From the IMG/VR virus record IMGVR_UViG_3300025098_000066, positions 1 through 52,969 of that record: a stretch of DNA of 52,969 bases. The stretch is one strand, 5' to 3'. Below are positions 11,601-29,993 of this stretch, piece after piece. The translations under genes and the position numbers were made by a program. The stretch's first letter is position 1, and each line of letters starts with the position of its first letter. The notes below the pieces were generated by a model. That model did no database searches and was not told the origin of the DNA. It saw only the letters and a program-made list of their open reading frames with translations. The DNA is from a virus. Taxonomy: Duplodnaviria; Caudoviricetes.

Positions 11601-12343
11601 AAGCAATACTAGAAGCTACTGACAACAACCCTGTTGTGCGTGGAGGGTTGAAAAAACTTTACCTAAAGGAGTTGAGAGATAAAGCATTCACTGCGGGGCA
11701 GACATCTTCTGGCGCACCCGTAACTAGCGTAGCTAAAGTTCGCAACATACTTAAAGAAAACACAGGGCTTGCGGCGTCAGGGGAAATCATTCTTGCGGGT
11801 GAGCCTGAGTTAAATAACATCATTAAGACTATTTTAACATCTGCGTCCGAAAGTCAGGCAAAGCGTAATTCTAAAGCACTACCAGGGTCATCTGGAACAC
11901 CAGAGATCCAACAATACCAGAATGCTATCAACACTATGATCAACGTGATTGTAGGGCCACTTAATCGCATAGGTACTCAGGCAAGAACAGCGGGTAGACT
12001 TGCGGCAGAAAAGCTAGACATTGCTAATCGGTATGAGATTGCTATGGACGTTGTAGTAGCTGACAGTAAGCTTGCGTTAGAAGTCATAGAAAAGCTTGAG
12101 AAGCGTAGAGCTACTAAGGGAGTAGGACCATTTCGACTACCCCGTGATATGTACGATGAAATGTTCTCTTTAGGTATTCGCATAGGAAAGTATGCGGAAG
12201 CAGACAGAGAAGATACATACAAATCCTGGGACGAGTACGTCATTGATGGGGCTGAAGCCGTAGATGGTACGGTAGAAGATGCCAGGTCCACACTAAGAAA
12301 AATTGGGGATCAGACAATCGAAATGCTGGGACTAGGTAGGTAA
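8678..12343 (+). CDS. Large putative internal virion (ejection) protein
   Basis: 1221 aa, helical, last gene of the structural arm. Confidence 0.55.
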   Translation: MAGPEISVEDILLDLQEDDQPSVEDILADLRKDGSSEEKKNQPEDPTVNPELVSYASELTNIQGGYEAADLEAAGFTNEEIQAYSDSIGQEMQEPKGDGSKLYLGVPGTDVYDGLKIGYKEDSFENREPDAEVSAFEIYNAYADNENTVIDPTTGNLTYNDPVSGQSFILYYPARAGTSVPIIQDVWNEAVRRLRPDYYADKPAGVNEGTRLINEVTDSLTNTVEFVAALGDIAADKVGLDTSFVEWTNTIPRTSSGFSKFDAVTGEGVGLAASFFTGKIVSDAAVEGGEFLLKRFMSPISKTSTWMKVGQPVIEKAYEPTRQLLKYSGGDLGVALGADTNTEAFIAPFDVDPNDPKAEQILAARMNIFVDSLIMSGVMDTALKAGLKTADFVNEASVGAIARSLFEGDGAKMTSAMDNILSDLSAVQASSTKQDMETARQQLIEVLRKNSTLLIDQTKASKQNNDLVLDVFSALEAGEAVTPQTQARIQQIRSGIVSSSKNQGALNQQANAINVQTDRILQEEAEAALPVGSTMDDAVEGIVGSNDSRILKQQRSIFEAEEAIKTDNEAALNSILSDPNLSPALSRLGKVSSSEVSALSVAKKKEIATTLIDEAERMTKQKNDLFNAIPEGSRFDYEGFGNLIDELSTNLDQFGTEGAEFLQSRLIATIKAAYKKAKPGEEAPSTILDQFGNPVTKAPTDIADLGEELFEAGVDFKRLYNDIRPAISALAEEAFNSGKGPVGTRLRSVVKYIDDQVEFVANNNPEAKDAATNAMNYYKRDFIPLWGDAPLTDTYQTFKDTRGRGINPVAETTQSQGQVTNILESGASEEVGQLVKALEVSDLGASPETVQEYIVARTFEDLYSQITKDGINNIDPATLSATIRGYADQMRGNFDTLAMELDSLESRIKNARQTGESVSDTLVQAQEQFAAMQNDAFSKLISGFVDDFVPGMPSANVENKITSMLNSSNGADSVKAILEATDNNPVVRGGLKKLYLKELRDKAFTAGQTSSGAPVTSVAKVRNILKENTGLAASGEIILAGEPELNNIIKTILTSASESQAKRNSKALPGSSGTPEIQQYQNAINTMINVIVGPLNRIGTQARTAGRLAAEKLDIANRYEIAMDVVVADSKLALEVIEKLEKRRATKGVGPFRLPRDMYDEMFSLGIRIGKYAEADREDTYKSWDEYVIDGAEAVDGTVEDARSTLRKIGDQTIEMLGLGR

Positions 12344-12377
12344 AGAAAAACCCCCAGACCGAAATCTGAGGGCTTCT
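12342..12377. terminator. Bidirectional intrinsic terminator
   Basis: AACCCCCAGA/TCTGAGGGCT stem with A-tract on the left and TTCTT on the right, between convergent arms. Confidence 0.75.
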
Positions 12378-12406
12378 TACTAGCTAAACGGGGGACCAAC
12401 CCCGTT
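12342..12406 (-). ncRNA. Candidate trans-acting antisense sRNA (sRNA-1)
   Basis: Own promoter; 5' hairpin AACGGGG/UUGGUC/CCCCGUU; UAGCUAGUAAG linker; terminator; complementary to repeated early-gene leaders. Confidence 0.75.
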
Positions 12407-12412: not shown

Positions 12413-12441
12413 ATTATAGAATTACAAGGCTCCTAGGTCAA
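12413..12441 (-). promoter_or_regulatory. Near-consensus sigma70 promoter of sRNA-1
   Basis: TTGACC (12441-12436)-17bp-TATAAT (12418-12413); -35 lies inside hairpin 12426-12458. Confidence 0.8.
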
Positions 12442-15660: not shown

Positions 15661-15682
15661 ATTAATCTCCCTATTATTTTTA

Positions 15683-16009
15683 TTATCGGTTATCGCCAGA
15701 ACCTTGAATTACTCCACGAGCTAAACGACTATTCAGTTTGTTCAAATTTCTCTGGGCAATTTCTTCCAGGCCAAAATCAAGATCTCTCGCAAGAATGGCA
15801 ACGTACCAAAGACAGTCACCCAATTCGTCAGCAATGGCGGCACGGTTTTCAGGCGAGAATTGACTATTATTGTCCCGCATGACTTTTTTTACTTTACCTG
15901 CAACCTCTCCCGATTCTGAAAACAAACCCATTGCAGGATAAGTAATTGCAATTTTATCCTCGTATATGGCAGTCTTTCCCGCCTGTGTTTGGTAGTCCTG
16001 CATGTTCAT
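15683..16009 (-). CDS. MazG-like NTP pyrophosphohydrolase
   Basis: ESGEVAGKVKK...DELGDCLWY...NLNKL. Confidence 0.9.
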   Translation of the reverse strand: MNMQDYQTQAGKTAIYEDKIAITYPAMGLFSESGEVAGKVKKVMRDNNSQFSPENRAAIADELGDCLWYVAILARDLDFGLEEIAQRNLNKLNSRLARGVIQGSGDNR

Positions 16010-16257
16010 AGATGTTCTCCCCTTTCATGCATTTCTATTAAATCTTCGATGAAGAATTTCATTTTATTAAGGTCGTAGAGGGTGTCAGTTCCCTCTTTTT
16101 CTCCCAGCCGATAACAAGCTTTAAAGATGTCACCACGGCTCTTGGACATAGACTTGTGGCTGATCAAATGTCGGAGTTCGTTTGCGTGGCGGGGTAGGGC
16201 ATAGTACGAAGTAGACATTCCATCTGATGCCACCTTGTTGCGGTCTACAGCACCCAT
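16006..16257 (-). CDS. Hypothetical protein (DUF3310-like)
   Basis: GDIFKACYRLGEKEG...DLNKMKFF. Confidence 0.55.
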   Translation of the reverse strand: MGAVDRNKVASDGMSTSYYALPRHANELRHLISHKSMSKSRGDIFKACYRLGEKEGTDTLYDLNKMKFFIEDLIEMHERGEHL

Positions 16258-16577
16258 CAGTTAGGTCTTTTCTTACCGTTGATGGGGACTACCTTGGTAT
16301 CATTCATCCTATCGATAAGTTCATCCGCAGGTTCAAAAGACCATTCCTGCTTTTCAAGTTCATCAGCCATTTCGAGGGCGCTGCCGAAAGTAGCCATAGC
16401 GTTAGGACCAAGACTTGCCATCAAGGACATACCTCTAAGCAAAAAACATAGATAGTTTTTGTCCTCTACATCAAAATCCTCTTCAAACTTAGCAAAGCTT
16501 TCCGTAACAAGGTTGCCCTCTACATCCAAAGAAACTGCTAGAGATACGGTGTTAGGTTCTAAATCTTCTGCGTTCAT
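16257..16577 (-). CDS. Hypothetical protein
   Basis: Coupled ORF within the replication operon. Confidence 0.7.
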   Translation of the reverse strand: MNAEDLEPNTVSLAVSLDVEGNLVTESFAKFEEDFDVEDKNYLCFLLRGMSLMASLGPNAMATFGSALEMADELEKQEWSFEPADELIDRMNDTKVVPINGKKRPN

Positions 16578-16927
16578 TTTTTAATCCTCTGTAGTAAATC
16601 GAAAAAGTGAGAAGCATCCAAGACAACCAAAGGGGTTTGTCTGTCGGCTTTTATGACTGCGAGGGGTTCAGCACCTTTGGGACAATTGGCTTCCGCCTGT
16701 TCCATTACTTTGTAGATTGCGAAGCTTTTGTTGCTCTTGCATTCTACGGAGTAAGGAAAGAGTCTCCTGGCGGCAGGGGATAGCATAATATCCTCTCCGT
16801 TTTGCCCCATTCCAGTGGAACGGACATCATCAGGTTCTAACTTGGGGAACCTTCCCAGGATTTGATCTCTAACCCACTGTTGGTGGCGTCTACCCTTAGC
16901 CTTTGCAGACTGAGGTTTGATAGGCAT
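16574..16927 (-). CDS. Holliday junction resolvase-like PD-(D/E)XK endonuclease
   Basis: SAKAKGRR, GEDI, SVECK motifs. Confidence 0.75.
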   Translation of the reverse strand: MPIKPQSAKAKGRRHQQWVRDQILGRFPKLEPDDVRSTGMGQNGEDIMLSPAARRLFPYSVECKSNKSFAIYKVMEQAEANCPKGAEPLAVIKADRQTPLVVLDASHFFDLLQRIKK

Positions 16928-17781
16928 TAGTCCTCGCTAACGTACCATTTGAATGGTGGATTGACTGCCGTACTCTCAGGCTGCGCCTTGTACTGAACAC
17001 CGGGGTAGCAGGAAGTTTTGAAGTCACACATGCCGCAGTTATCTTTACTGAGATACTTACGTCCTGTGAGATTTCTCTTATAACTATCCTCAATGGGATC
17101 AAAACAACGCTTGAACGGGGCATCACTGTCTAGAGTTCGTACCGTAGACTTCAGCTTGTCTAGAACAATCTTACGTTCTGATGGGCTATTGTCTGCGTCT
17201 ACAACCATAACTTCGCCATTAGATTTGTTTACTACAATCCAACCGCCAACAGGTATGCTCTGCGCTTCTGAGTAGGCCATAAGTTGACCAACGTAACCAA
17301 AGTTATCGGACTTGCGTAAGCCACGATATCCTTCGCTCCACTTATTAGCGAAAGCCCAGGGGGAACACGACTTCACATCAAATTCTTTACCGTCGATTTG
17401 AACATCGTCCTCGCCCTTAATAGTTACGCCCTCAAGATCTAAAGAAACCTTTGCCTTACCACCTGTGATATTAGCATCCGCCACTTTAAGTATGAGTGTC
17501 ATAATCTCTTCGATCATGTATCCGTGCAGCATCTGCATTACAAAGTGATAAGGTTTTCTAGAAGGTTCGGCCCCAGACTTCTGCCTTTGCAGGACACACG
17601 CTGGTCTACCAACATTTGACCCACGAATTCGGAAATCTTTTGATCTAGGGGTGAGGCTTTTCTTTAGTTCCCGTTTGATATTTTCACCAACCGCATCAAT
17701 CCATTCATCCTTAACAACCAGATCGTCGTATTCGTCGTTAGACATACGATCCATCGTCATGTGAATGAGTTCTTGCAGCAT
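16927..17781 (-). CDS. PD-(D/E)XK (Cas4/RecB-like) exonuclease
   Basis: RGSNVGRPAC, GEDD...DVKS, YVGQLMAY, CGMCDFKTSC. Confidence 0.75.
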   Translation of the reverse strand: MLQELIHMTMDRMSNDEYDDLVVKDEWIDAVGENIKRELKKSLTPRSKDFRIRGSNVGRPACVLQRQKSGAEPSRKPYHFVMQMLHGYMIEEIMTLILKVADANITGGKAKVSLDLEGVTIKGEDDVQIDGKEFDVKSCSPWAFANKWSEGYRGLRKSDNFGYVGQLMAYSEAQSIPVGGWIVVNKSNGEVMVVDADNSPSERKIVLDKLKSTVRTLDSDAPFKRCFDPIEDSYKRNLTGRKYLSKDNCGMCDFKTSCYPGVQYKAQPESTAVNPPFKWYVSED

Positions 17782-18662
17782 TAGGCCACGTCCTCATAGT
17801 CAGCATCCAGGCTTTCATGCATCTGGTCTAGGACTTGAGAGGCTTCTGCTTCGTAGACATCACCTTTAATTGCTTTGTAGTACTCACCATCGACGTAAGC
17901 ATTTTCGTCATCTATGATCTGCTTAATCATTGTAATGGTATCAAAAATATCCTTATCGATAGGAAGCGGTGAACCGAAATCAGGGGAGTACTCAAAAGTA
18001 TAGTAAGCCTTGCCCGTGGCAGCACTTTTCCTACGTTTCGTTACCACACCAAGGGCAAAGTTCCACATACTAGATCCACGGGGAATCTGTTTTAAAAACT
18101 GTGTTTCAAAAGGAGAATATAGCCTACCCTTTTCGTCCAGGCGATAATTATTCTGCCCCTTTAAGCGCATCAATACAGGATGATTTTCATAAGTTTTTTC
18201 TTCACCTGAAGAAGACACCCCTGTGTAAGACACTAGGCCCCGTAGTTGTCTTTCATTTTTTACACCTGAATACTTTTTTCTCTGTTCTTCCGTCATGTCC
18301 CGCATCTCTTTGGAACTAGGTTTTCCGCAACGCAGTGTACCTTTCGTATCCCGTGCTTCCTCGAAAAAATCTGTAAGTAAACGGCTTTTGCATGCCATCT
18401 TCTTTTCTTGAGCATCATACAAAGTATACTGATGCATCTGGCTCAACGGACGAAACGTGAAAGATTTTGCGTAAAAGTATTTTTTATCGCTGCCTTTCAC
18501 GAACACATGGCCCAGATCTAGACGGGTTCCACTATCATCTTCATCCTCGTAATTTATCTTTAATTCATCCATAATGACTTTTGAATTTTCTACGCCTGAT
18601 GCGCCAAGTTCTTTTGCCATTGCTGCGAGGTCTGCTGCCTGTACTGTTGTTAGGTCACCCAT
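17781..18662 (-). CDS. Putative single-stranded DNA-binding protein
   Basis: Position between polymerase and exonuclease, acidic C-terminus, own promoter. Confidence 0.55.
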   Translation of the reverse strand: MGDLTTVQAADLAAMAKELGASGVENSKVIMDELKINYEDEDDSGTRLDLGHVFVKGSDKKYFYAKSFTFRPLSQMHQYTLYDAQEKKMACKSRLLTDFFEEARDTKGTLRCGKPSSKEMRDMTEEQRKKYSGVKNERQLRGLVSYTGVSSSGEEKTYENHPVLMRLKGQNNYRLDEKGRLYSPFETQFLKQIPRGSSMWNFALGVVTKRRKSAATGKAYYTFEYSPDFGSPLPIDKDIFDTITMIKQIIDDENAYVDGEYYKAIKGDVYEAEASQVLDQMHESLDADYEDVA

Positions 18663-18689
18663 TGGTGTCTCCTTTATTATTGAGTTTAT

Positions 18690-18719
18690 AATGTACCATA
18701 GTTAAGCACCATTAATCAA
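18690..18719 (-). promoter_or_regulatory. Promoter with ACCATAGTTAAG element
   Basis: TTGATT-18bp-TACATT with TG. Confidence 0.5.
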
Positions 18720-20484
18720 GTGGTATCTCTTCTTGATCCAGCCAATTAGGCCCTACCGTCATTTCTACATCCAGAGGCAATACAGGCTTATAATCAAAGC
18801 GTTGCTCCAATTCTTCACCTACATTTGCCATAGCTTCGACCAAAACTTTTTTTACCTGCGTCAATTCATCTGGGTGGCAATCCACTACAATTGAGTCGTG
18901 TACCGTTAAAATGAGTTTCGACTTCAGGTTGTGTTTCTTAAACAGCCTAAAAGCACGGATACAGGCCAGAGGTACTATGTCCCCTGTGGCAAATCCTTGG
19001 ATCGGATAGTTGACTACTTGAGTAGCATTCGTAACACGACCATTCTTCAGTCTACGGGCATTAGGCCAGTAGTACTGTCTACCACTAGGCGTCTGGACTA
19101 TGCCGTTCTTAACTACCCCATCCATAAGACGTTGCTGGTAAGATTTTAGACCTTTGTAGATCACAAAGAATTCGTCGTAATATTTCTTCTCATGTTCCGC
19201 TAGACCTGACCCTTGCGAACCATATAGGGGAGCAAACGTATGAAATTTTACTTGGGCACGAGTTTCTTTGGTTACTTCTCCGGCAGGTATCCTGTGAATG
19301 ATAGAAGCTGTCTGCTTGTGAATGTCCTTACCATTTAGAATATCCTCAATAATCTGGGGATCTCTAGATACTTCTCCAGCAACACGAAATTCCAAACCTG
19401 AGTAATCAAATTCAACTATTTTGTAGTCAAATCTAGACACCATAGCTTTACGAACAGGGAAGCCTCTTTTCGGCATATTTTGCAGGTTAATATTAGAAGA
19501 ACTAAGACGCCCGGTTGCGGTTATGCACTGGTTAAAGTTCGTGTGTATTAATCCGTTAGGACGGGTCCATGTTTCGATGCCTTTAACGAAGCTAGTTAAG
19601 TAGGTAGACACTGCCGAAAGCCTACTAATCTTCGTAAGGAACTCTACCGCTAGGTCATTGTTCTTACTTCTAGCATGAGAGATCAAAAGCTTTATTGTGC
19701 CTTTGTCAGTTTTAAAACCATTCACGGAAGCATACTGAGGACCAAGAGGACTTATCTTCAGCCCCGCCACCTTGCCAGTAGGATTATAGAAAGCACCGAC
19801 CCCCACACATGAGGGACACTTAGACAAGTTTTTATATGGGTCACCAGGAACTTTGTAGGTGACCTTATTCTTTGTCCGGGTTTTCTGTTTATACTTCTGT
19901 ACCAGACCCCGACCATCACACTCTGGGCAGCAAACAACAGAAGTTTTCTGGATTACTTTAGTGTTTGAACGCACCGCAGTATTAAACTCTGCTATGCTCA
20001 TACGAGGAGGTGGAAGAGGTTTACCTTCAGCGTTTGTGCCGATGCGGAAAGTCTGTATATGGTAGTCCCTGTTAACTACCTCTCTGCTATATATAAGTTT
20101 AGATACATCTGCTCCTGAATTTAAATTGATTGGGGTATCCCCCATAACAATTTCTACGATCTCTTCCAGGCGTTTACTTAGTTCATCATGCTCTTTCTGG
20201 AACTGCTCACCGATAGATGAAAGTTCTTCTAAATCTATCTTTACCCCATTAGTCTCACACTCAACCAGAAACTCAAGCATCTCATTCATTAGGACAACAA
20301 TAGGTTTTAAGGATTTATTTTCCTCTGCCTCGAAAGCATCCATCTGTGATAGGTACACCCCAGCACATGATCTAACATCCGCCTCTGCATATGGAATTAC
20401 AACATCATCCAGAGGCATAGCTTCAAATCCGATGCCTGACTTAAACAGATCATCGACTAGTTCACTTTTCTTTTGCTCAATCAT
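18712..20484 (-). CDS. DNA polymerase family A, large part (Exo III + DnaJ-type zinc finger + polymerase)
   Basis: YAEAD; CPECDGRG/CPSCVGVG; TGRLSS, DYSGLE, R...K...F...YG, NYPIQG, VHDS. Confidence 0.95.
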   Translation of the reverse strand: MIEQKKSELVDDLFKSGIGFEAMPLDDVVIPYAEADVRSCAGVYLSQMDAFEAEENKSLKPIVVLMNEMLEFLVECETNGVKIDLEELSSIGEQFQKEHDELSKRLEEIVEIVMGDTPINLNSGADVSKLIYSREVVNRDYHIQTFRIGTNAEGKPLPPPRMSIAEFNTAVRSNTKVIQKTSVVCCPECDGRGLVQKYKQKTRTKNKVTYKVPGDPYKNLSKCPSCVGVGAFYNPTGKVAGLKISPLGPQYASVNGFKTDKGTIKLLISHARSKNNDLAVEFLTKISRLSAVSTYLTSFVKGIETWTRPNGLIHTNFNQCITATGRLSSSNINLQNMPKRGFPVRKAMVSRFDYKIVEFDYSGLEFRVAGEVSRDPQIIEDILNGKDIHKQTASIIHRIPAGEVTKETRAQVKFHTFAPLYGSQGSGLAEHEKKYYDEFFVIYKGLKSYQQRLMDGVVKNGIVQTPSGRQYYWPNARRLKNGRVTNATQVVNYPIQGFATGDIVPLACIRAFRLFKKHNLKSKLILTVHDSIVVDCHPDELTQVKKVLVEAMANVGEELEQRFDYKPVLPLDVEMTVGPNWLDQEEIPLD

Positions 20485-20873
20485 CCCCAGCCACCTCTGC
20501 GCTGGGCAGTTTCTTTCAAAGAAAGCTTAGTTCTCTGGCCTTTAGACAGGATATATTCGTTGATCATTGTGCAACGTATTGTAGGAGGGATAGGCATACC
20601 CATAGCCTTTAGCCACAAGACATCGAACTTAGCATTATGCGCCACTAGCACGTCAGCTTCTTGCAGAGCTTTACGCAAAGGTTCAGGGCTGTCAGGCACA
20701 TCCTGTTCATTATGATGAAAGACAAGATTAGTTACTTCATCAACGGTGTCCCACCCTATCCATCCAAAGTGCGCTGACACGCATTTGTTCAGCGGGTTGA
20801 AGGGACTGTTGTCTATCTTGCCATCGAACCGTTGGACGGTGGTTTCCAGATCTAATACGAGGGTTTTATTCAT
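20481..20873 (-). CDS. DNA polymerase N-terminal 3'-5' exonuclease fragment (Exo I/II)
   Basis: VLDLET and AHNAKFD; ATGA overlap with the large part. Confidence 0.85.
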   Translation of the reverse strand: MNKTLVLDLETTVQRFDGKIDNSPFNPLNKCVSAHFGWIGWDTVDEVTNLVFHHNEQDVPDSPEPLRKALQEADVLVAHNAKFDVLWLKAMGMPIPPTIRCTMINEYILSKGQRTKLSLKETAQRRGGWG

Positions 20874-21049
20874 ATGTTGAACCCCGATAACTTAGATACA
20901 ATCTTTGATTGAACGGAGATCAAACGCTGGATTAAAGAAAACTGTTCGTCCAATAGAATTTTAATCTCAGGGGCTTTTGTTTTCTGATACTCTGCTTTGT
21001 TCTTCTCAAGCATTTCATAGAATTCTTTTAGGTCTGTTTCATTAAGCAT
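20870..21049 (-). CDS. Hypothetical protein
   Basis: Likely start MLNETDLKEF, coupled to neighbours. Confidence 0.6.
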   Translation of the reverse strand: MLNETDLKEFYEMLEKNKAEYQKTKAPEIKILLDEQFSLIQRLISVQSKIVSKLSGFNI

Positions 21050-21353
21050 CCGCTGACCCCCGCAATCTGTGAAGTAGGTCCATAGTGTTACCGTAGGGAT
21101 ACCACCAACCATTTCCCCCTATAACCGACCATTTTTTAACTACTAAGCTGACAAGGTATTTTTCATCTATCCGTATTTTTCCTCCCCAATAATCCACTCC
21201 TTCCCCGCCAAGCTCCATAAACTTATGCAGGGTTTTTAGTTTGTGTAGATTTTTACTAGCTGTCTGATTGTAACTAGTGTCACTTAATTTAAGCCTGTGT
21301 GCTTCATGTATGGCGTCTTTTACATCTTGAAGAGTGCAGCCAGGATTTATCAT
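21042..21353 (-). CDS. Hypothetical protein
   Basis: Coupled ORF in operon. Confidence 0.65.
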   Translation of the reverse strand: MINPGCTLQDVKDAIHEAHRLKLSDTSYNQTASKNLHKLKTLHKFMELGGEGVDYWGGKIRIDEKYLVSLVVKKWSVIGGNGWWYPYGNTMDLLHRLRGSADA

Positions 21354-21877
21354 AATGTTCTCCCGTAAAATTTAGTGCGGTAGCTTTCGTCATGGCGGTC
21401 AAATAAATACCAACATGCGTTGTCTTTTCCTGTGGTGTTATCGAACCACTTTACCCGACCAATACTCACTATTTTGCGTAACCTAGGCAGGAACGGTATG
21501 GATTGCTTTGTGTGAATCCAATCCGCATCGAATAGCAGCCAGGTAGGTCTAAGGTTGGAAAAGGTTTCTATCATGGGGTGTAGAATAGATCTTTCCCAGG
21601 GCGGGTTGGTCACTATAACATCCGCATTCTTTAGGTGATGCTCCTCAATATTAAGGGCATCCAGAGTAATTATCCCAAGCCTCTGAGGCTCCAGATCATA
21701 GGCACTTACGCAGTTCATATCCATAGCCAGTAGGCAACGGATCAATGCCCCATCCCCCGCACAGGGTTCACAAAACGTCTGGATATCCTGCATGAATGGT
21801 CTGATAGGTTCAGCCGCTTCTATAGGCGTCCTATAGTAATCACGGGGCTTACGTTCAAAGTTAGATCGTTTCCCCAT
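21350..21877 (-). CDS. DNA amino-methyltransferase (N6-adenine type likely)
   Basis: DYYRTP, EPCAGDG (motif I), TNPPW (motif IV); start coupled to helicase stop. Confidence 0.85.
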   Translation of the reverse strand: MGKRSNFERKPRDYYRTPIEAAEPIRPFMQDIQTFCEPCAGDGALIRCLLAMDMNCVSAYDLEPQRLGIITLDALNIEEHHLKNADVIVTNPPWERSILHPMIETFSNLRPTWLLFDADWIHTKQSIPFLPRLRKIVSIGRVKWFDNTTGKDNACWYLFDRHDESYRTKFYGRTL

Positions 21878-23094
21878 CAGTCTACATACCTTGTTATTTC
21901 GGCCTGTAGATTGCAGATGATTTGACCATGCCAACCTGATAATTTGTTCTTGGAGATTTGTAGGAACCTAGTGGGATCAGGGCCATCATCATCCTCCCCA
22001 GAGGATTTACCCACACCACAAATAAGATCTGCTTCCGCTGCCTTACCAGTGCGGCTGTTCTCCATCATAGAGAAGTCTAGGCGTACACGTCCCTCTGCTT
22101 CCGCACTTGCCTGGGATACAGCGATGATACCGCATTCATGCCGTTTAGCTAATTCTCTAGCTTGTCGGTATATTTCACGAAGCTTTTCATGTGTACCACC
22201 AAACTGACCCGATATGTTGACTTTATCAAGTTGATCCACCACCAGGATATCAGGCTTGATACGGGCGACATACCCATCCAACATAGTCATATCCCATTCC
22301 TGGGCGTCTTTCATAATTAAACGATCACGAATTGCGAGGTAACGGCTTGAAGCTAAATCAGGGTTAGCTTGTATATCTGTTGTGGTCATTCCTGTGAATG
22401 ATTGTATCGCCCGTAGCTTCGTGCGCCGGGTTGCTTCCTCGTTACCAATGTATAGTACCTTCGCACCTTGCTGACAGAAACCATCTGGAGCAGAACATAG
22501 GCTAACAGCTAGGGCGCTCTTACCTGTTTCAGGTCTGGCGAAGATAATCATAAACTCACTAGGGCCTAGTCCGTATACATTCCTAGAAAGCTGATTGATG
22601 TTAAATTTCCATCGTGACTCATCACTTGCTTGTGCGAGTAATTCATGCAGATCATCTGTTGTCGGCTCACCAAAATCGTCTGGAAGGTAGTCTTCTGAGG
22701 TGCGCTCAATCAGGCTCTTCAGTTTAGCCATTGCATCCACATGGCCTTCAGCCATTTGAATACCTAAGTTGGTTACATCCCGGCCTGTCTCTTTGCGCCA
22801 GAGATCCCCAATAACATCCCGTGCTATCTCTTGTGTCAGGGGTGTTTGCTGCCGCACTTCCGCTAACGTATCAGCAAAGTCTTCTTTCTCAGAAACTGTA
22901 GCTACGGGGTTGTTGGTGGCCCAGATTGCTAGGATGTCGTTAGTATTAACATCCTGATCATATTTATCCTGTGCCTGGGCAATGGTTTTATAAACCTCTG
23001 CATTGTTACCTGTGAATAGTGACTGCCTCATTTTTGTTTTATTTGCTTGATAGAATTCTGAAGACAGTAGCGTCTTCAACAATGCTTTATCCAT
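21877..23094 (-). CDS. DnaB-like (SF4) replicative helicase
   Basis: ARPETGKS Walker A, VVDQLD, VSQ, KNKLSG. Confidence 0.92.
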   Translation of the reverse strand: MDKALLKTLLSSEFYQANKTKMRQSLFTGNNAEVYKTIAQAQDKYDQDVNTNDILAIWATNNPVATVSEKEDFADTLAEVRQQTPLTQEIARDVIGDLWRKETGRDVTNLGIQMAEGHVDAMAKLKSLIERTSEDYLPDDFGEPTTDDLHELLAQASDESRWKFNINQLSRNVYGLGPSEFMIIFARPETGKSALAVSLCSAPDGFCQQGAKVLYIGNEEATRRTKLRAIQSFTGMTTTDIQANPDLASSRYLAIRDRLIMKDAQEWDMTMLDGYVARIKPDILVVDQLDKVNISGQFGGTHEKLREIYRQARELAKRHECGIIAVSQASAEAEGRVRLDFSMMENSRTGKAAEADLICGVGKSSGEDDDGPDPTRFLQISKNKLSGWHGQIICNLQAEITRYVD

Positions 23095-23137
23095 GTTTGG
23101 CCCTTTCTAGCTAGCTGTAGCGTGATGCCACAATCAC

Positions 23138-23167
23138 TGTATAGAGGACCATAGTAATGGTAATCAA
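23138..23167 (-). promoter_or_regulatory. Helicase promoter with ACCATA-N2-(A/T)ATGGT palindrome in the spacer
   Basis: TTGATT-18bp-TATACA; ACCATAGTAATGGT at 23148-23161. Confidence 0.55.
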
Positions 23168-23170
23168 GAT

Positions 23171-23202
23171 AAAAAAAGACCCCAGGTAAAACCCAGGGCC
23201 TT
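23171..23202 (-). terminator. Intrinsic terminator
   Basis: GGCCCTGGG/CCTGGGGTC stem followed by T7. Confidence 0.8.
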
Positions 23203-23233
23203 AATGTAGATTAAACTGTTTTGTTACAGTTAT

Positions 23234-23440
23234 TTATGTCTGACGAAATTTCATCTTCTTTAAGTCAGGTTGGGTATCCCCTCTGCGCTCACGCATATCC
23301 ACTGTGCTATACACAATGTTTGAATTACCTTTAGTTATTTCGTCTACCTTGCTCTGGAGTGCTTTCTGTTGATCAGCAGCTTCAATTAATCCTGCATCTG
23401 GCAGATCGTAGTCCAGTAGGACCAACGCTCGTAATTTCAT
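23234..23440 (-). CDS. Hypothetical protein
   Basis: AAGG SD; basic C-terminus DMRERRG. Confidence 0.7.
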   Translation of the reverse strand: MKLRALVLLDYDLPDAGLIEAADQQKALQSKVDEITKGNSNIVYSTVDMRERRGDTQPDLKKMKFRQT

Positions 23441-23684
23441 AGTACACCTTTAAAATGATAGATTATCCATAGTGCAGTTGTTACCTGCACAGCCCCCATA
23501 AACTTAAAGAGCAGGGGGGCCAAGGTGTGGATGAAGTGAATATGTACAAATAGCGGTAAAAGTACTAGGCCCGTATCTATCGCACTTAGCAGACATCTTT
23601 GAGGCAGTCCTACATGACTTACCTGCGGTGGACGATATCAAATAAGACCACTTATATTTAGATTTAAGTGTAGTATTCTTAGTG

Positions 23685-24467
23685 TCAATAATAATCATTT
23701 AGCAGTCTCTCTGTATCTTGTAAGTTTAGAACCTTTAGATCTAACTTAGTTATCCTCATTGTTGTGGACTTAGATAAAGCCCGACACATAAACACTGCCT
23801 TTTGTTTAGCGTCATTGTCAAGGACAATAATTATTTTATTGTAACTATTAAGTGATTTTTCGAGGTCTTTAGTTAGGTTCGTACCTAATAGTGCGACACC
23901 TACTGTATTATTACATCTGGATACAGCACAGGCAGAAGCTGCATCTTCAACTAGTACCGCTGTAGATCCCTTACCAACGTGAACTCCAGCCTGTGTATTT
24001 CCATATGACCACCACTTAGGGCCTCTACTAGAGAGGCTTCTACCAACAGCACCTTCACTAGTATGTGTATAGAAAAGGACTCTGTCCTCATTAGGGCAAT
24101 ACTTCAAAGTAACTGACCCATCTTGGTAAGCTTCATAACTATTAACTGATTTAATATATTCCACTGCGGCGGGGTGATTATCTATCGACGTAACCATTGT
24201 GGGTAGAGGGGTAGTCTTTTTCTCAAACTTTGTTTTATTCTTTCCTGCCATATACGCTTTAGCTTCTTCAATAGTCCTGGGACCAGAGTATACACCTTTA
24301 GCTGTACAGCTTGCTTTATAGCAGTTCCAAAGAGTTTTACCGTCCATCTTGGATATACTGAATTTCTTACGTCCACCACAGAACGGGCAATCTATAGACT
24401 TATGCTCACCATCCGTAAGATTTATAGATTGTAATATGTCCCACTGGTCACGATAACTAAAGTTCAT
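23685..24467 (-). CDS. DNA primase (Zn-binding + TOPRIM)
   Basis: CPFC...CYKASC; VLVED; LDND. Confidence 0.88.
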   Translation of the reverse strand: MNFSYRDQWDILQSINLTDGEHKSIDCPFCGGRKKFSISKMDGKTLWNCYKASCTAKGVYSGPRTIEEAKAYMAGKNKTKFEKKTTPLPTMVTSIDNHPAAVEYIKSVNSYEAYQDGSVTLKYCPNEDRVLFYTHTSEGAVGRSLSSRGPKWWSYGNTQAGVHVGKGSTAVLVEDAASACAVSRCNNTVGVALLGTNLTKDLEKSLNSYNKIIIVLDNDAKQKAVFMCRALSKSTTMRITKLDLKVLNLQDTERLLNDYY

Positions 24468-24511
24468 TGTATACCCTCCCTAGGTATTCCACCCCTGGAC
24501 GGGGTGTCCGT

Positions 24512-24539
24512 AGGATACAGTCAATGGTCAACTAGTCAA
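24512..24539 (-). promoter_or_regulatory. Primase promoter
   Basis: TTGACT-16bp-TATCCT. Confidence 0.45.
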
Positions 24540-24580
24540 CAGTTAATTGTGGTATTTAGTAAGGTGATAGGTTTTTAGCC

Positions 24581-24710
24581 TAACTAATTGATATCTCTGT
24601 ATCTTATTGATATTTAATAAGTTTCGCAGACCCTGAAGGTCGTAGGTTCAAATCCTACTCCCGCAACCAAAATCCAATGATATCAGTAACTTAACTAGTA
24701 TCATTGGATT
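24581..24710. promoter_or_regulatory. attP accessory sites: two IHF consensus sites and an inverted repeat
   Basis: WATCARNNNNTTR at 24593-24581 (-) and 24681-24693 (+); IR AATCCAATGATA/TATCATTGGATT 24671-24710. Confidence 0.6.
24632..24669 (+). other. attP core: 3' half of tRNA-Met (initiator type)
   Basis: CCTGAAGGTCGTAGGTTCAAATCCTACTCCCGCAACCA = T-arm, acceptor strand and CCA; no 5' half. Confidence 0.85.
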
Positions 24711-24739
24711 GGATTGGTTAAAATTGGTCGGGTCACCCC

Positions 24740-25471
24740 TTACCTGTATTGATTCTGTATAGACTTATAGGTTGCTCTTTGTCTTTCTTCATCAGTCATT
24801 GGTCTGATCTGCGGTTTGTTATCACCCATAATAATGGGGAACGCTGGGGTCATAACCTTTTTAATTTCACGGGCTAATAGGACATGCTCCCATTGCGTGA
24901 CCCCTTCATCGTCCCGTACATCCAGGTAATGGAGCCAGGACCGTAGTGTGCCGTTCACATAGAGCGTGGACATCGTAAGCCCCTCTGGAAGCAGCGCACG
25001 GGCTGTTTCTTTGGCTACGTTCATAGACCTCATTTCTTCATAGGCTTCTTTCGCCGCTGTTTTAACATCAAGAGTAAGGAAACCGTTTCGGGTTTTAACT
25101 TCGTCGGTCAGGTCATCTACACTGTTCTGACGGTTCTTTGTATCTTGCCTACGATACTCACGATTTGTGAATTCTATTTCATCTGAGTATCGCTGGCTGA
25201 ATTCCTGAAAGCTGAAGCTGCGGTGACGCAATAACTGACGGGTTATATCCCTAGGAGCCTTGACCTCTACAACAGCGTTAGCCATCTCAAACACGGACCA
25301 ATGCTTATTCTTCATGCAGTATTTAAGAAGCGCCTCGGCTGTCTTATGGTTGGCCTGGTTAGATGGGTTGGAAACCCTGGCAGCATAAGAGATCAGTTCT
25401 TCGGGCGAACTGGCATCCATATTTATGGTAGGTTGAGTTAGTCCAACAAGTTTAGCTAATATTTTTACCAA
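24740..25471 (-). CDS. thyX: Flavin-dependent thymidylate synthase
   Basis: HWSVFE, RQLLRHRSFSFQEFSQRY, ETARALLP; TTG start. Confidence 0.95.
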   Translation of the reverse strand: MVKILAKLVGLTQPTINMDASSPEELISYAARVSNPSNQANHKTAEALLKYCMKNKHWSVFEMANAVVEVKAPRDITRQLLRHRSFSFQEFSQRYSDEIEFTNREYRRQDTKNRQNSVDDLTDEVKTRNGFLTLDVKTAAKEAYEEMRSMNVAKETARALLPEGLTMSTLYVNGTLRSWLHYLDVRDDEGVTQWEHVLLAREIKKVMTPAFPIIMGDNKPQIRPMTDEERQRATYKSIQNQYR

Positions 25472-25620
25472 GGCGGTTCTCCATTATCGTCTAGTTCTAC
25501 TTTGTTAAATTCAAATACATTTGGGTGGGGAAGGTCTTCATGTTCGTCTAATGGGTTGTTAGTAAGCACCCCAATAGATTCCAAGTGACGCTCCAGTTCT
25601 GGAGGTATCCTAACGTCCAT
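25465..25620 (-). CDS. Hypothetical 51-aa acidic protein (not in ORF track)
   Basis: MDVRIPPELERHLESIG...; GGAG SD; overlaps neighbours. Confidence 0.6.
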   Translation of the reverse strand: MDVRIPPELERHLESIGVLTNNPLDEHEDLPHPNVFEFNKVELDDNGEPPW

Positions 25621-25771
25621 CTGTTTTTCTTAGCTCCCAGCGGATGGCAGTAACTAAATCGATAAACCGTTCAGTGAGCGGGTAAATATGATATGTAGGA
25701 ATATCCGCTGACTTAAATACCTTCCTCAGTTCATCTTCAAAGGCTGCTCTTGCCTCATTTACATTTCTCAT
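25610..25771 (-). CDS. Hypothetical 53-aa protein (not in ORF track)
   Basis: ATGA-coupled to integrase stop; MRNVNEARAAFEDELRKVF... Confidence 0.6.
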   Translation of the reverse strand: MRNVNEARAAFEDELRKVFKSADIPTYHIYPLTERFIDLVTAIRWELRKTDGR

Positions 25772-26874
25772 CTTCCGTGCCTTTTTCTTGCTGCGGTTGC
25801 TGCCATGCGGCGGGTTTTCTTGACGTAGACACTCACCACTTCCCGTGAAGTATGGCCTGTAAGCGCCATGATTTCGTCTTCTGTAAGACCAGCTTCTCCA
25901 GCCTCTGTAGCGCCAGTACGGCGTAAGTCTGAGATCTTGAGTTCTTCGGGTAGCCCAGCGGCTTTGCGCACCTCTGCTACCGTCTTATAAGCCCACCGAG
26001 TGTAAGGCCGACCTGTACGCTCATTAAGAATAATGAAGTCATTTTTGCCGCCACGGGTTAGGCTGTCGAGCCGTTCCTTCAGTTGCTCATTCACAACAGG
26101 GACAGACACTAGGTTGCCTTGCGGTTTACGAACCGTGCGGCTCTTCTCCTGCACAAAGTCGAAGAAGCCATCATCTTGGAGATCATAATTGCCCCAACGG
26201 ATCTGTCGCATGTCTCCAATACGCTGGCATAGATCGTAGCACATCAAGGCTAACGTACCTATCGACCACAGATCCATTTCGTCAGCTTTAGCTACAAATA
26301 TATCTATGTGTTCCTTCTCCCAGCGAACATCCCGTGAGGGTAGAGTGGCTAGACCCATCTTAGAAAAGGGGTTGGAACGTGTAAGACCTAAACGGAAACC
26401 TACGAACCACACACGGCGTAAAACTTTACACACATGGTTTGCACGATGCTCACTCACATCGTTACACAGTTGTTTGTGTAAGCTTTCCACTACTTTTACG
26501 GTGATATTGTGGTGCAGGGTCTGACCAAAGACGATATTTGAGCGTCCTATGCGAGTATTGATCACAGAATCTATAAGTTGCTGGTATGTATTCTTACTAT
26601 TGACCGAAAGACGGTCCCAATTGGATGTATTTTTATACGCAGCTATTAATCCATTAACAGAGTTCTCACTGATGTGCTTTTGCCTATCAATCCCTCGTTT
26701 GTAATCTAGAAATGCCTTCTCCCATTCCATGCAGCGGTCAACGGCGTCTTTTTTCTCTTGGTAGCTTTCATATTTGACCAGGAGTGCTTCTCGCACCGCC
26801 TTAGATGGGTTTGCACCCCAAGATATTTGACCTGTGGACAGCACATGCCGTTCTAAGTATTTAATCGATCCCAT
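25768..26874 (-). CDS. int: Tyrosine integrase
   Basis: QRIGD, KS, SDLRRT, LTGH...VY catalytic residues; start reassigned to ATG 26874 with GGGAGG SD. Confidence 0.92.
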   Translation of the reverse strand: MGSIKYLERHVLSTGQISWGANPSKAVREALLVKYESYQEKKDAVDRCMEWEKAFLDYKRGIDRQKHISENSVNGLIAAYKNTSNWDRLSVNSKNTYQQLIDSVINTRIGRSNIVFGQTLHHNITVKVVESLHKQLCNDVSEHRANHVCKVLRRVWFVGFRLGLTRSNPFSKMGLATLPSRDVRWEKEHIDIFVAKADEMDLWSIGTLALMCYDLCQRIGDMRQIRWGNYDLQDDGFFDFVQEKSRTVRKPQGNLVSVPVVNEQLKERLDSLTRGGKNDFIILNERTGRPYTRWAYKTVAEVRKAAGLPEELKISDLRRTGATEAGEAGLTEDEIMALTGHTSREVVSVYVKKTRRMAATAARKRHGR

Positions 26875-26907
26875 TCTACAACCTCCCGTGGTTATGCGGA
26901 TAGGATG

Positions 26908-26937
26908 ACCATAGTTGTGGTATCGAGTCGGAGTCAA
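26908..26937 (-). promoter_or_regulatory. Integrase promoter/operator
   Basis: TTGACT-18bp-TATGGT; overlaps ACCATAGTTGTGGT and two GAGTC sites. Confidence 0.5.
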
Positions 26938-26952
26938 TAAGAAAATAATTAC

Positions 26953-26982
26953 TTGCACTTTGTTAAGTGATTGTGCTAATCT
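26953..26982 (+). promoter_or_regulatory. Promoter of sRNA-2
   Basis: TTGCAC-18bp-TAATCT with extended TG. Confidence 0.65.
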
Positions 26983-26988
26983 TAGCTC

Positions 26989-27061
26989 GTGAACATCCTC
27001 CCTGTTCACACTGTTCACTGTGTAAGAACAGCCCCCCGGTTTTATAGTCGGGGGGTTTTTT
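26989..27061 (+). ncRNA. Candidate anti-SD sRNA (sRNA-2; cuckoo/CcsR-like loop)
   Basis: GTGAACA-TCCTCCC-TGTTCAC hairpin, CTGTTC/GAACAG hairpin, CCCCCCG/CGGGGGG-T6 terminator. Confidence 0.7.
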
Positions 27062-27089
27062 GTTGCGAATCAAGTATCAGTATAAATGT

Positions 27090-27111
27090 AAAAAGCCCCA
27101 CAAAGGGGGCT
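27090..27111 (-). terminator. Intrinsic terminator
   Basis: AGCCCC/GGGGCT stem followed by T5 on the minus strand. Confidence 0.7.
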
Positions 27112-27135
27112 AATTTACTCGCACGTCAGATGTAT

Positions 27136-27429
27136 TTAAAGGGCTGTTACATGAGCTACTATCTTGTAACCGTAACTGTTGGCATCAGGGTCAACAGCCA
27201 TGCATACAGCCTTCCCAGCTTCATCTAAGTAAATAACATAGTGGTCCTTATCGTCTTCAATGGATCGTTCAGATGCATCCACCAACGCCTCTCCAATCTC
27301 TTTAGCCTGTCCTGGTCCTAGTATCATACTAATAGTCTCCTGCTCTAATGGAATTAGGTTTAATTTAAAAAATACTCGCACGTCAATCATTATTAAAGGG
27401 CTACTTAGGTGATATGATAGCGATAGCAT
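27136..27429 (-). CDS. Hypothetical protein (start uncertain)
   Basis: ORF followed by a terminator. Confidence 0.6.
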   Translation of the reverse strand: MLSLSYHLSSPLIMIDVRVFFKLNLIPLEQETISMILGPGQAKEIGEALVDASERSIEDDKDHYVIYLDEAGKAVCMAVDPDANSYGYKIVAHVTAL

Positions 27430-27605
27430 TTTTCTGCTTATTAGATGGTCAGTTATGACAAAATTCTGACAATTTTTCTTAGCATTTTTTAAAATTATAA
27501 ATTTGGTTTTTATAATTGCGAATCAATTTACCTTTGTTATGGTCATTAAGAGTCGGGATTTAACCACCCGATTTTTTTACTAGCTAAACAAAAGGACCAA
27601 AGAAA

Positions 27606-28313
27606 ATGAAACTACTCAACACAAATGCCAGTAATACCAAAATTCTGAAAACCCAAACGGGTACAGATTACTTGATTGCTAGCCTATCCCTAATGCCAAA
27701 CGCTATAATATGCCCCGCAAGGGATATTGCGCAGTGTTCTGTTGATTGCCTGGTATCGGCGGGACGGGGTCAAATGAATTCTGTTGCTAGGGCCAGACAA
27801 TCAAAATCGGATTTATGGAGGGATGATCAAGCGCAATTCCTGGAAACCCTCAAAAAGGAAATTGCCGCATTCATTCGTAAATGTGAAAAGCAACAAAAAC
27901 GGGCGGCATTCCGACTCAATACAATTTCGGATATCGCCTGGGAAAAGTACGGGATTCCGCAAATGTTTCCCCAGGCTTTATTTTACGACTACACAAAACT
28001 TGCCGCCCGATTAGGCAGAACCCCCGAAAACTATAAATTGATGTTTTCATATAGTGCCGCCCCGGCATATCAAAACCAGGTAAACAAAGCCCTAAAAACT
28101 AGCGCCCCGATATCGGCGGTATTTAGGGGGGGCATGCCAAAAACCTTTTTAAATAGAATTGTGATTGATGGGGACAAATCAGATTTAATCAATTTAAATT
28201 CTGGCCCCGTTATTGTGGGGCTGAAATTAAAGGGGGGGAAAGCAATCCAGGCAAGTAAGAGTCCCTTTATTATAGACAACCCCGAAACCTTAGAATTTCA
28301 GGGGGCGGCATAA
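27606..28313 (+). CDS. Gene product 88-like protein (radical-SAM-like Cys motif)
   Basis: ICPARDIAQCSVDC, FRLNTISD, FYDYTK. Confidence 0.6.
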   Translation: MKLLNTNASNTKILKTQTGTDYLIASLSLMPNAIICPARDIAQCSVDCLVSAGRGQMNSVARARQSKSDLWRDDQAQFLETLKKEIAAFIRKCEKQQKRAAFRLNTISDIAWEKYGIPQMFPQALFYDYTKLAARLGRTPENYKLMFSYSAAPAYQNQVNKALKTSAPISAVFRGGMPKTFLNRIVIDGDKSDLINLNSGPVIVGLKLKGGKAIQASKSPFIIDNPETLEFQGAA

Positions 28314-28387
28314 TGCCTAGCGCCCTCTATTATATCGTCGGTTTTGCGGTGGTTTGGTTTTGGGTGGGTTCAATTGTTTTTGGGTAG
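28313..28387 (+). CDS. 24-aa hydrophobic micropeptide
   Basis: TAATG-coupled; MPSALYYIVGFAVVWFWVGSIVFG. Confidence 0.5.
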   Translation: MPSALYYIVGFAVVWFWVGSIVFG

Positions 28388-28487
28388 CACCTAATAAAAA
28401 CCCTTTACTAAGTTACGAATCATGGTTATCAATTAAGGGGCGGGGCTTACACCTTGCCCCTAACTAGCTAAACAAAGGACCAAACAA

Positions 28488-28901
28488 ATGACACATGAAA
28501 CATTAACTAACCCGTTTTTCGTTGCAGCTTATCTTTTTGTTATCATCGCAACTGCAGCATTGCTTGCATATGTCACGATCTATTTGCAGGACCGCCACAC
28601 GCAAAAAAAGCTTGATCAAATATCTGAAGAATCCGCCGCATGCATTGCCGCCGATAAAAAGAAACATTCCGATTTTATGGACCGTATTCATAAGATTGAA
28701 AATTGCGATTGGAATCGCCTGGACTTGCTAACAGATGCAACCAAAGCATACCGCCTAGCCCTTAACGCAAAATATGGCGAAGATAGTGAAAGACTCTGCA
28801 ATAAAATGGATCGGCTAACAGAGCAATTCGCCCGGATCAATAAAATTGATATGCCATTAGCAGAACGCATTCGGGATTCACATCACTTTGTACCTGCCTA
28901 G
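28488..28901 (+). CDS. Membrane-anchored early protein
   Basis: N-terminal TM helix; leader repeat upstream. Confidence 0.7.
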   Translation: MTHETLTNPFFVAAYLFVIIATAALLAYVTIYLQDRHTQKKLDQISEESAACIAADKKKHSDFMDRIHKIENCDWNRLDLLTDATKAYRLALNAKYGEDSERLCNKMDRLTEQFARINKIDMPLAERIRDSHHFVPA

Positions 28902-28989
28902 GCTCTAACCCTTAGCCCCCCTCAATTCCTGGGGGGCATTGGGTTGCAGCTTATTGCAACAAAAACCTAGCTAAACAAAGGACCACAAA

Positions 28990-29850
28990 ATGCCATTTGA
29001 TTTAATTCACACAATACAAAACGACCAAACCGCCCTCACATTTGAGGACATAGCCAAAACATGCCCGGCGGCATTTACTAAAACGGCAAGCCCTAATACC
29101 TCGAGTCGATATGGTTTTGTTGATACGGAATCCGCAATCAATATTCTTGCTGACTATGGGTTTGTTCCTACTAAGGCAATTCAAAAACCTAGCAGAACCC
29201 CGGCAATGACTCCCTATCAAGAGCATATGATAAGCTTTGCACGTCCTGCCGAATTCGGGAAAAAGGATCAAAAAAACCTGGTACTGTTTAACAGCCATAA
29301 TAAACGCTCGAGTCTGCGATTGATGACGGGCAATTTTAGGGCGGTTTGTAGCAATCAATTGATCAAAGAAGGGGAAGGGTTTGACGCTAAGTTGCGCCAT
29401 TCCAAAGTGACCGCAAGGGAATTTGAAAACCTTTTGACTCACCAGGTCCAGAACCTGGACTCCATGATGGAGTCTATTGAGACAATGCGGAGTCGTAACC
29501 TATCATCAAACGATTGCTTAGACTTTGCATATGACGCCCTCAAAATGCGCTGGGATATGGTAGCAACCCCCCAGGAATTGGAAGGGACCGAAAACGGGAT
29601 AAGAGCCACAACGTGGGAAACAATGCAGCAAGCCCTAAAGGTTCGCCGCCTAGGGGATGGGGGAAATGACTGCTACACTGTATTCAATAGGTTGCAAGAG
29701 TCGGTGCTGCGGGGGGGTGTTCAGGTCTATTCTAAAACCAAAGCAAAACCGATTTGGACTAAACGCAAAGCAAAAGCAATCACAAGCCTAACCGAAAACG
29801 TGCGCCTGAATGCGGGGTTGTTTGGCATGGCGGAAAGCTTTGCAGCGTGA
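28990..29850 (+). CDS. DUF932-family protein
   Basis: SSRYGFVDT, LFNSH, GNFRAVCSN, VRRLGD, YTVFNRLQE. Confidence 0.8.
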   Translation: MPFDLIHTIQNDQTALTFEDIAKTCPAAFTKTASPNTSSRYGFVDTESAINILADYGFVPTKAIQKPSRTPAMTPYQEHMISFARPAEFGKKDQKNLVLFNSHNKRSSLRLMTGNFRAVCSNQLIKEGEGFDAKLRHSKVTAREFENLLTHQVQNLDSMMESIETMRSRNLSSNDCLDFAYDALKMRWDMVATPQELEGTENGIRATTWETMQQALKVRRLGDGGNDCYTVFNRLQESVLRGGVQVYSKTKAKPIWTKRKAKAITSLTENVRLNAGLFGMAESFAA

Positions 29851-29933: not shown

Positions 29934-29993
29934 AACAATGCGCCCCCTGGATTGCCTGGGGGGCTTACTAGCTAAACAAAAGGACCAAACAAA

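Follow-up and report, generated by a model that had tools for sequence, protein, structure and literature searches.

The helicase leader and its operon

The DNA analyzed here, called the window throughout, is the whole of IMG/VR virus record IMGVR_UViG_3300025098_000066 (52,969 nucleotides), a complete-length virus record related to the Roseobacter phages CRP-3, CRP-235 and CRP-212; CRP-3 and CRP-235 have been listed as HMO-2011-type phages (PMC6918029, PMC9038755). We studied the translation-initiation leader of its DnaB-type replicative helicase gene together with a candidate small RNA (sRNA), sRNA-1, which is predicted to pair with this leader and with those of several putative early genes.

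On the minus strand, positions 23114..23092 read CTAGCTAGAAAGGGCCAAACATG, that is CTAGCTAGAAAGGGCCAAAC followed by ATG (23094..23092), and this ATG starts a 405-amino-acid (aa) open reading frame (ORF, 21877..23094) which matches DnaB_C in Pfam with an E value of 3.3e-14; both site and gene agree with a preliminary description of this DNA, made from its letters without database searches. The leader comprises two blocks, GCUAGCUAGA (block A, 23115..23106) and GGGCCAA (block B, 23103..23097), the second of which overlaps the AAAGGG Shine-Dalgarno, and the centroid fold predicted for the 5' untranslated region leaves these bases unpaired. The helicase is the first gene of an operon that continues with a methyltransferase-like ORF and a family-A DNA polymerase (Table 1), for which the earlier name of helicase-methylase-polymerase operon was a fair one. 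Directly upstream of the motif a hairpin is predicted; it lies at the same place in loci L002-L017, where its shape is kept through compensatory and G-U changes, the stems being GUAGC/GCUAC in some relatives versus ACAGC/GCUGU and GUAGA/UCUAU in others. The putative promoter TTGATT-N18-TATACA further upstream is conserved in 14 type-A loci.

Comparison within the window showed that a leader preceding four putative early genes on the plus strand recurs before the helicase in degenerate form. This early leader reads CTAGCTAAAC-(A)AAA-GGACCA(A/C) and stands directly before the ATGs at 27606, 28488, 28990 and 29994, each copy being preceded by a different hairpin, so that the helicase shares the layout of hairpin and then leader with the early cassettes. 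The helicase copy is without the closing C of block A and the CUUA 5' extension of the early leaders, and its spacer is 2 nt long versus 3-4 nt in those. A sixth copy of the leader is found at 12380-12399 on the plus strand, in the gap between convergent genes. Outside the window, in locus L023, whose helicase has 54% identity, the leader upstream of 2316 (ATAGCATAAAGGACCATAAATG) resembles that of the window helicase despite the distance.

A candidate small RNA gene antisense to the leaders

The preliminary description invoked an sRNA-1 of which the best-placed candidate, and the only window sequence that fits, is the minus strand of 12343-12406, opposite the sixth leader copy. It would give an RNA consisting of a hairpin with a UUGGUC loop, a single-stranded linker and a terminator hairpin with a U-run, with a predicted minimum free energy of -29.5 kcal/mol (z -4.06; none of 200 shuffled sequences was as stable). 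The promoter-like sequence ahead of it agrees with the consensus at 11 of 12 positions, which puts it first among the 34 promoter-like sites detected in the 19.5 kb from 12000 to 31500. No ORF of at least 60 aa was found within 12344-12457. An Rfam search of the window gave 0 matches at the gathering score, and a search of the sRNA locus (12250-12550) with E values up to 10 returned sub-threshold noise only; the P1/P7 C4 antisense RNA family was not among the matches at either setting, while the IsrK model scored 12.2 bits on the locus against a gathering score of 50, which does not make it a member.

Beyond the sRNA gene, the plus strand carries a hairpin with a T-run at 12426-12457 (14 pairs, three of them G-U on the plus strand only), and the -35 box of the sRNA-1 promoter sits inside it. 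With a plus-strand terminator in this place, late transcripts from the 1221-aa gene would include the complement of sRNA-1 over its whole length, which suggests a possible sponge or a convergent-transcription switch.

Table 1. Coordinates of the features discussed. Positions are those of the window, except in the last six rows, which refer to related loci or to the start codon of the related helicase gene.
Feature	Position	Strand	Remarks
Helicase translation-initiation leader	23092..23115	-	block A, spacer AA, block B, AC, ATG
Helicase-leader 5' hairpin UGUGGC-AUCAC-GCUACA	23115..23133	-	predicted fold; directly upstream of motif
Putative helicase-operon promoter TTGATT-N18-TATACA	23138..23167	-	read by eye; below promoter-scan threshold
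Terminator-like hairpin ahead of helicase promoter	23202..23176	-	
DnaB-type replicative helicase gene, 405 aa	21877..23094	-	Pfam DnaB_C
DNA-methyltransferase-like ORF	21350..21934	-	PHROG 799 'DNA methyltransferase', E 7.7e-34; downstream of helicase
Split family-A DNA polymerase, two ORFs	20481..20873 + 18712..20484	-	Pfam; downstream of helicase
Candidate sRNA-1, about 64 nt	12343..12406	-	hairpin 1, linker, terminator hairpin with U-run
sRNA-1 hairpin 1	12406..12387	-	loop UUGGUC at 12399..12394
sRNA-1 linker UUUAGCUAG...	12386..12378	-	single-stranded; = UUUAGCUAGUAAGAAG
sRNA-1 terminator hairpin with U-run	12377..12343	-	
sRNA-1 promoter TTGACC-N17-TATAAT	12413..12441	-	sigma-70-like; consensus match, not proof of use
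Early leader 1, before GP88-family gene	27576..27605	+	ddG -16.5 to -16.9; strongest predicted target
Early leader 2, before 137-aa ORF	28460..28487	+	ddG -15.4
Early leader 3, before DUF932 gene	28963..28989	+	GGACCAC instead of GGACCAA; ddG -15.4
Early leader 4, before 65-aa ORF	29964..29993	+	ddG -16.0 to -16.4
Two-block complementary site in first codons of thyX (24740..25471)	25438..25461	-	12 bp + 7 bp
sRNA gene in CRP-3 (L111)	1895-1961		
sRNA gene in CRP-235 (L112)	about 1885-1960		
sRNA gene in CRP-212 (L117)	13844-13904		
G005 helicase blocks	-10..-1 and +1..+8		GACUAACUGA + UGACCAGA
CRP-3 helicase blocks	-24..-12 and +3..+7		CUAACUUGAAAGG + GACCA
CRP-212 helicase blocks	-14..-7 and +3..+8		UAACUAGG + GACCAA

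Predicted pairing of sRNA-1 with start regions of the window

Binding was predicted from the energies of co-folds, as ddG = E(sRNA+target) - E(sRNA) - E(target), on positions -35..+15 of every greedy ORF. This measure, which includes the cost of opening both RNAs, replaced a raw RNAduplex scan of the genome in which intramolecular structure is ignored. There the GC-rich stem of hairpin 1 outweighed everything else, with values down to -33 for random windows; in that scan the early leaders were near the top and the helicase lay outside the top 18.

Block A of the helicase leader pairs with UUUAGCUAGU of sRNA-1 over 10 bp, 8 of them Watson-Crick, and block B with the loop-side UUGGUCC over 7 bp, 6 of them Watson-Crick, the two blocks together covering -21 to -3 of the helicase start. 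With both blocks aligned in this way, the two A>G differences from the early leader do lie opposite sRNA uridines and form G-U pairs, as had been proposed. The preliminary description went on to call the substitutions pairing-preserving, which holds for these two, but the other differences weaken the site: the helicase start has a ddG of -9.5 kcal/mol (-10.4 with a slightly different 5' end of the sRNA) versus -15.4 to -16.9 for the early leaders, since the missing closing C, the 2-nt spacer and the absence of CUUA make the predicted binding about 6-7 kcal/mol weaker. Even so, among 68 start regions the helicase ranks fifth, directly after the four early leaders. Its designation as a fifth target is consistent with this rank and becomes uncertain when the site within thyX is counted, which pairs better (ddG -13.2, both in the window and in G001).

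We also searched the window for two-block sites, defined as at least 9 bp with at most 2 G-U pairs plus 7 bp with at most 1 G-U pair within 20 nt. There are six: the sRNA's own antisense, three of the early leaders, thyX and the helicase. The leader of the DUF932 gene fails the strict 7-bp requirement for block B (28980-28986, GGACCAC), although its co-fold still gives -15.4. In 60 genomes generated by a first-order Markov model the mean number of such sites was 0.12 and the maximum 1; the two-block complementarity of the helicase leader is beyond chance.

The sRNA family in related phages

Our survey of the sRNA comprised 37 loci having a 140-aa gene upstream of the sRNA and four added loci, 41 in total, among which a regular expression recovered 21 distinct sRNA variants. 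In all 18 variants examined, at least 5 uninterrupted pairs close the TTGGTC loop, with 11 distinct stem sequences, and in the terminator 7 of 12 pairs show double changes. The conservation of hairpin 1 was checked by anchoring on the loop, since alignment of 19 variants with MAFFT and RNAalifold misplaced this 5' hairpin and recovered the terminator only. All 14 sRNA loci listed retain TTGACC together with a -10-like hexamer, whereas the linker varies from lineage to lineage. The same arrangement of TTGACC promoter, UUGGUC loop, lineage-specific linker and terminator occupies unannotated gaps in the genomes of the cultured phages CRP-3, CRP-235 and CRP-212; the family is unannotated in these phages and is not in Rfam.

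The compilations given here leave aside type-F sRNA-like loci (L065-L069, L075; G008, G009), loci without a regular-expression match within the flank (such as L062, L066 and L071-L077), G004 and G012, which are without sRNA or helicase start, and G014, which is without a helicase match. In the literature on HMO-2011-type phages we found no mention of such a small RNA, and in the main texts of PMC6918029 and PMC9038755 neither an sRNA or antisense RNA nor a promoter is mentioned.

Wherever a genome has the putative early genes, their start regions give the best co-fold values. Compared with the window (-15.4 to -16.9), the early leaders reach -18.1 in G002, -16.4 in G003, -16.0 and -14.9 in G006, -18.5 to -15.1 in CRP-3, -22.4 to -18.1 in CRP-212 and -19.2 in CRP-235. 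The leader consensus is itself lineage-specific and mirrors the linker of the sRNA of the same genome, as seen in CRP-3, CRP-212, CRP-235, G006/G007 and G002/G003. Moreover, one leader of G006 matches the linker and 3' stem of its sRNA and another the loop and 3' stem, and such use of different sRNA parts would be expected of antisense pairing and not of a fixed protein site. Taken together, these comparisons make pairing of the sRNA with the early leaders well supported as a prediction.

Complementarity at the helicase start of relatives

TAGCT followed by AAAGGRCCA is kept in 14 of the 18 helicase loci read, and these 14 give nine distinct type-A leaders. Most differences among the nine are exchanges of A and G or of C and U at positions facing U or G, and seven of the nine keep both blocks in the co-fold (ddG of the set, -6.5 to -14.7). 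We then compared the helicase start of 14 genomes having both sRNA and helicase start with 400 random windows each, using the genome's own sRNA. Eight of them fell in the top 2.25% or better: G000 (1.75%), G001 (0.5%), G002 and G003 (0), G005 (0.75%), CRP-3 (1.0%), CRP-212 (1.25%) and G015 (2.25%). For both G002 and G003 this means that 0 of 400 random windows were as good, and their helicase start ranks second among the start regions. A Fisher combination over nine lineage representatives gave p = 2.3e-4, a value to be read with the lineages not being fully independent.

G005, CRP-3 and CRP-212 are the most informative in that their linkers differ, yet the helicase start of each holds the complement of its own linker (10, 13 and 8 bp, respectively), with the loop complement GACCA(A/G) within codons 1-3 and the block positions shifted relative to the start codon (Table 1). 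G005 retains GACCA even though the frame in which it is read differs (MTR vs MDQ/MDH), which points to selection on RNA and not on protein. The position 3' of the target core is A-U, U-A or G-C in different lineages, and within the core an A-U pair has become G-C. As to further genomes of the G005 type with sRNA and helicase, only the 5.1-kb contig L016 was found, metagenome and genome collections being outside the scope.

Interpretation and alternative explanations

We regard the helicase leader as probably, though far from securely, a genuine but secondary and lineage-variable site of a trans-acting sRNA. That RNA pairing is the better reading than a DNA-binding site, as the preliminary description had it, is upheld here, but the two G-U pairs cited in its favor are not the stronger reason. 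We prefer it because the sRNA has a conserved promoter and terminator and an invariant loop on 11 different stems in all 18 variants, because leaders and sRNA change together between lineages, and because three diverged lineages keep complementarity at the helicase start in shifted registers. In the mechanism we propose, the conserved loop UUGGUC would first touch GRCCAA, next to the Shine-Dalgarno; the UUGG of this loop presumably fits the YUNR U-turn pattern of antisense-RNA loops. The linker would then zip onto CUAGCUARA, and the resulting duplex over -21 to -3 would block 30S binding and lower helicase translation. Being weaker, the helicase site would let its operon stay active for longer than the early genes, or leave it less fully repressed, giving a graded, two-tier regulon that might act either as a shut-off during lytic growth or in silencing the prophage.

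Several results weigh against a role of the sRNA at the helicase. The value of -9.5 reaches only the 0.9-1.75% tail of random 50-nt windows and is barely above those of the next start regions, -9.1 and -8.3. Transitions between A and G are the commonest mutations, and two of them prove little. Pairing-breaking changes, named at the outset as grounds for rejection, were found in part: pairing is eroded in two of the nine type-A leaders, those of the close relatives L011 (-6.5) and L007 (-8.3), whose co-folds are without block B, and a U interrupts block A in L011 and L017. In the wider set, G011 is marginal (5.5%) and five of the 14 genomes (G006, G007, G013, G010 and CRP-235; 41-90%) are without helicase complementarity, so that the helicase is not a family-wide target. 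Furthermore, non-cognate sRNAs, exchanged among lineage A, G005, CRP-3 and CRP-212, pair with the helicases as well or better (the CRP-212 sRNA on the window helicase gives -15.4), and the cognate sRNA is the best for its helicase start in only two of 11 cases (G003 and CRP-212); the signal therefore derives in part from an ancestral core common to the lineages and not from lineage-specific co-evolution, which on grounds of energy we do not claim. As for expression, a single RNA-library contig of low depth covers 12380-12658 and shows neither strand nor ends.

Much of this would also follow if the leader were a diverged standard expression cassette of promoter, 5' hairpin and Shine-Dalgarno leader, kept for good translation or mRNA stability, with a complementarity too weak to matter in vivo, an explanation that we take seriously and nevertheless find doubtful. 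The architecture shared with the early cassettes fits it, as do the energy deficit of about 6-7 kcal/mol that places the site near the top of the background, the erosion in L007, L011 and L017, the absence from five of 14 genomes and the equal pairing of non-cognate sRNAs. It accounts poorly for the three diverged lineages which keep both blocks against their own sRNA despite a changed leader and block position, for the GACCA kept across the frame shift of G005, and for the second rank of the helicase start in G002 and G003, which no random window equaled. That a purine-rich ribosome-binding site came to resemble the early leader by chance is hardly credible: a single 10-bp helix with 8 Watson-Crick and 2 G-U pairs does occur at about 20 or more sites of the genome, which makes the helicase helix alone unexceptional, and GGRCCAA alone is found 13 times versus 12.5 expected, but for the two blocks in combination the expectation is 0.12 per genome, counting both strands and all positions, and 14 of the 18 helicase loci retain the motif.

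The reader of the motif could instead be a protein, one that binds RNA to repress or activate translation or one that regulates by binding DNA. In that case 12380-12399 would be just another site, and the helicase would be controlled by this protein and not by an sRNA. Start-associated motifs with unknown readers do exist in other phages, such as the start-associated sequence (SAS) of Cluster K (PMC3203893), CTAGCTAG in the helicase copy is palindromic, and covariation of sense and antisense copies alone cannot separate the two models. We nevertheless hold a protein reader to be very unlikely, given that the copy at 12380 is the only one antisense to a consensus promoter and lies between promoter and U-tailed terminator, that a G-U pair makes this terminator better on the minus strand, that the loop of hairpin 1 is kept while its stem covaries, that the G006 leaders match different parts of the sRNA, and that all target copies are in the sense orientation at ribosome-binding sites. 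The palindrome was also considered as a DNA operator and rejected, as relatives do not keep it (CTAGCTAAA, CTAGCTGAA).

Going beyond RNA pairing at single leaders, the sRNA might serve temperate HMO-2011-type phages, a group counted with the most abundant phages of the oceans, as their master post-transcriptional switch and perhaps as their immunity factor; this larger role we consider unlikely. The sRNA would then be made from a constitutive host-type promoter and would keep the early genes for host takeover tightly silenced, with a looser hold on the replication module (helicase operon and thyX), so that the prophage would be held quiet, or the lytic program timed, without a classical CI-type repressor, and late plus-strand transcripts running through the sRNA gene to the 12426-12457 terminator would serve as antidote.

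Comparison with known systems

The c4 RNA of phages P1 and P7 has its complementarity split into two short blocks on a folded RNA; it is released by cleavage of the operon transcript that also holds its target, of which there is essentially one. Repression of ant is incomplete without the C4 RNA (PMC8198154). Like c4 (immI), sRNA-1 would be a phage-encoded structured small RNA that pairs with an mRNA of the phage itself at the ribosome-binding region and blocks its expression; unlike it, sRNA-1 has its own putative promoter, lies 10-17 kb from its predicted targets and matches four early leaders as well as the helicase and perhaps thyX. In satellite phage P4, a temperate element not known to have a classical protein repressor, the CI RNA is a master regulator that pairs with repeated sites in phage transcripts; it is processed from the leader of the operon that it controls and causes premature transcription termination. 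The sites of sRNA-1, in contrast, overlie Shine-Dalgarno sequences and start codons and so point to control at the level of translation. T4-like RegA is a protein which represses many early and replication mRNAs at their ribosome-binding sites with graded affinities; the outcome proposed here is similar, whereas the factor would be an RNA. DicF, IsrK and others are prophage-encoded trans-acting sRNAs of the Hfq type that act mainly on host mRNAs. With them sRNA-1 shares a putative promoter of its own, a U-tailed intrinsic terminator (the one Hfq-related feature seen in the sequence), a short seed and several predicted targets, but these targets are the phage's own leaders.

A parallel on the side of the leaders may be drawn with Cluster K mycobacteriophages, in which SAS (SAS/ESAS) is a short asymmetric motif that contains the Shine-Dalgarno and stands a few bases ahead of the starts of some non-structural genes, often with an inverted repeat just upstream. 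Several of these genomes also carry one SAS on the opposite strand; its authors left open whether the reader is RNA or protein (PMC3203893). Here, unlike there, the complementary-strand copy lies inside a conserved promoter-to-terminator sRNA gene, with which the leader covaries.

If the pairing holds, a phage sRNA reaches the first gene of a DNA-replication operon, and perhaps thyX, beyond the small early genes, and would be a graded, two-tier regulator of the infection program. The presence of the sRNA family in CRP-3, CRP-212 and CRP-235, which are cultured phages of RCA roseobacters, and in many uncultured relatives of the HMO-2011-type group offers a testable phage-host system. CRP-3 integrates at tRNA-Met (PMC6918029), so that an sRNA silencing early and replication genes would bear on the maintenance of lysogeny or the timing of lysis.

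Further possible targets and sequencing coverage

The site in the first codons of thyX is stronger than that of the helicase, and good scores are likewise obtained in G006, G007, CRP-235 and CRP-212 for start regions in or close to thyX; thyX may be a further target of the sRNA. Other start regions with low energies against the sRNA of their own genome are that of a 130-aa exonuclease ORF in G002 (8006, plus strand; -9.8) and one in the replication module of CRP-212 (9430, plus strand; -18.1). As judged from complementarity, the regulon may reach beyond the helicase.

Among the sequencing runs, six hold a small share of the window (0.05-0.13) and were available as contigs only, and the four that were mapped cover it in a patchy manner at low depth. 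One run has a joint from 27603 to 30026 with just 26 letters on one side, which we do not interpret. The stretch 24632-24670 shows very high depth in all four mapped runs, with loose ends on both sides, which fits a sequence shared with a host tRNA, as an attP core would be.

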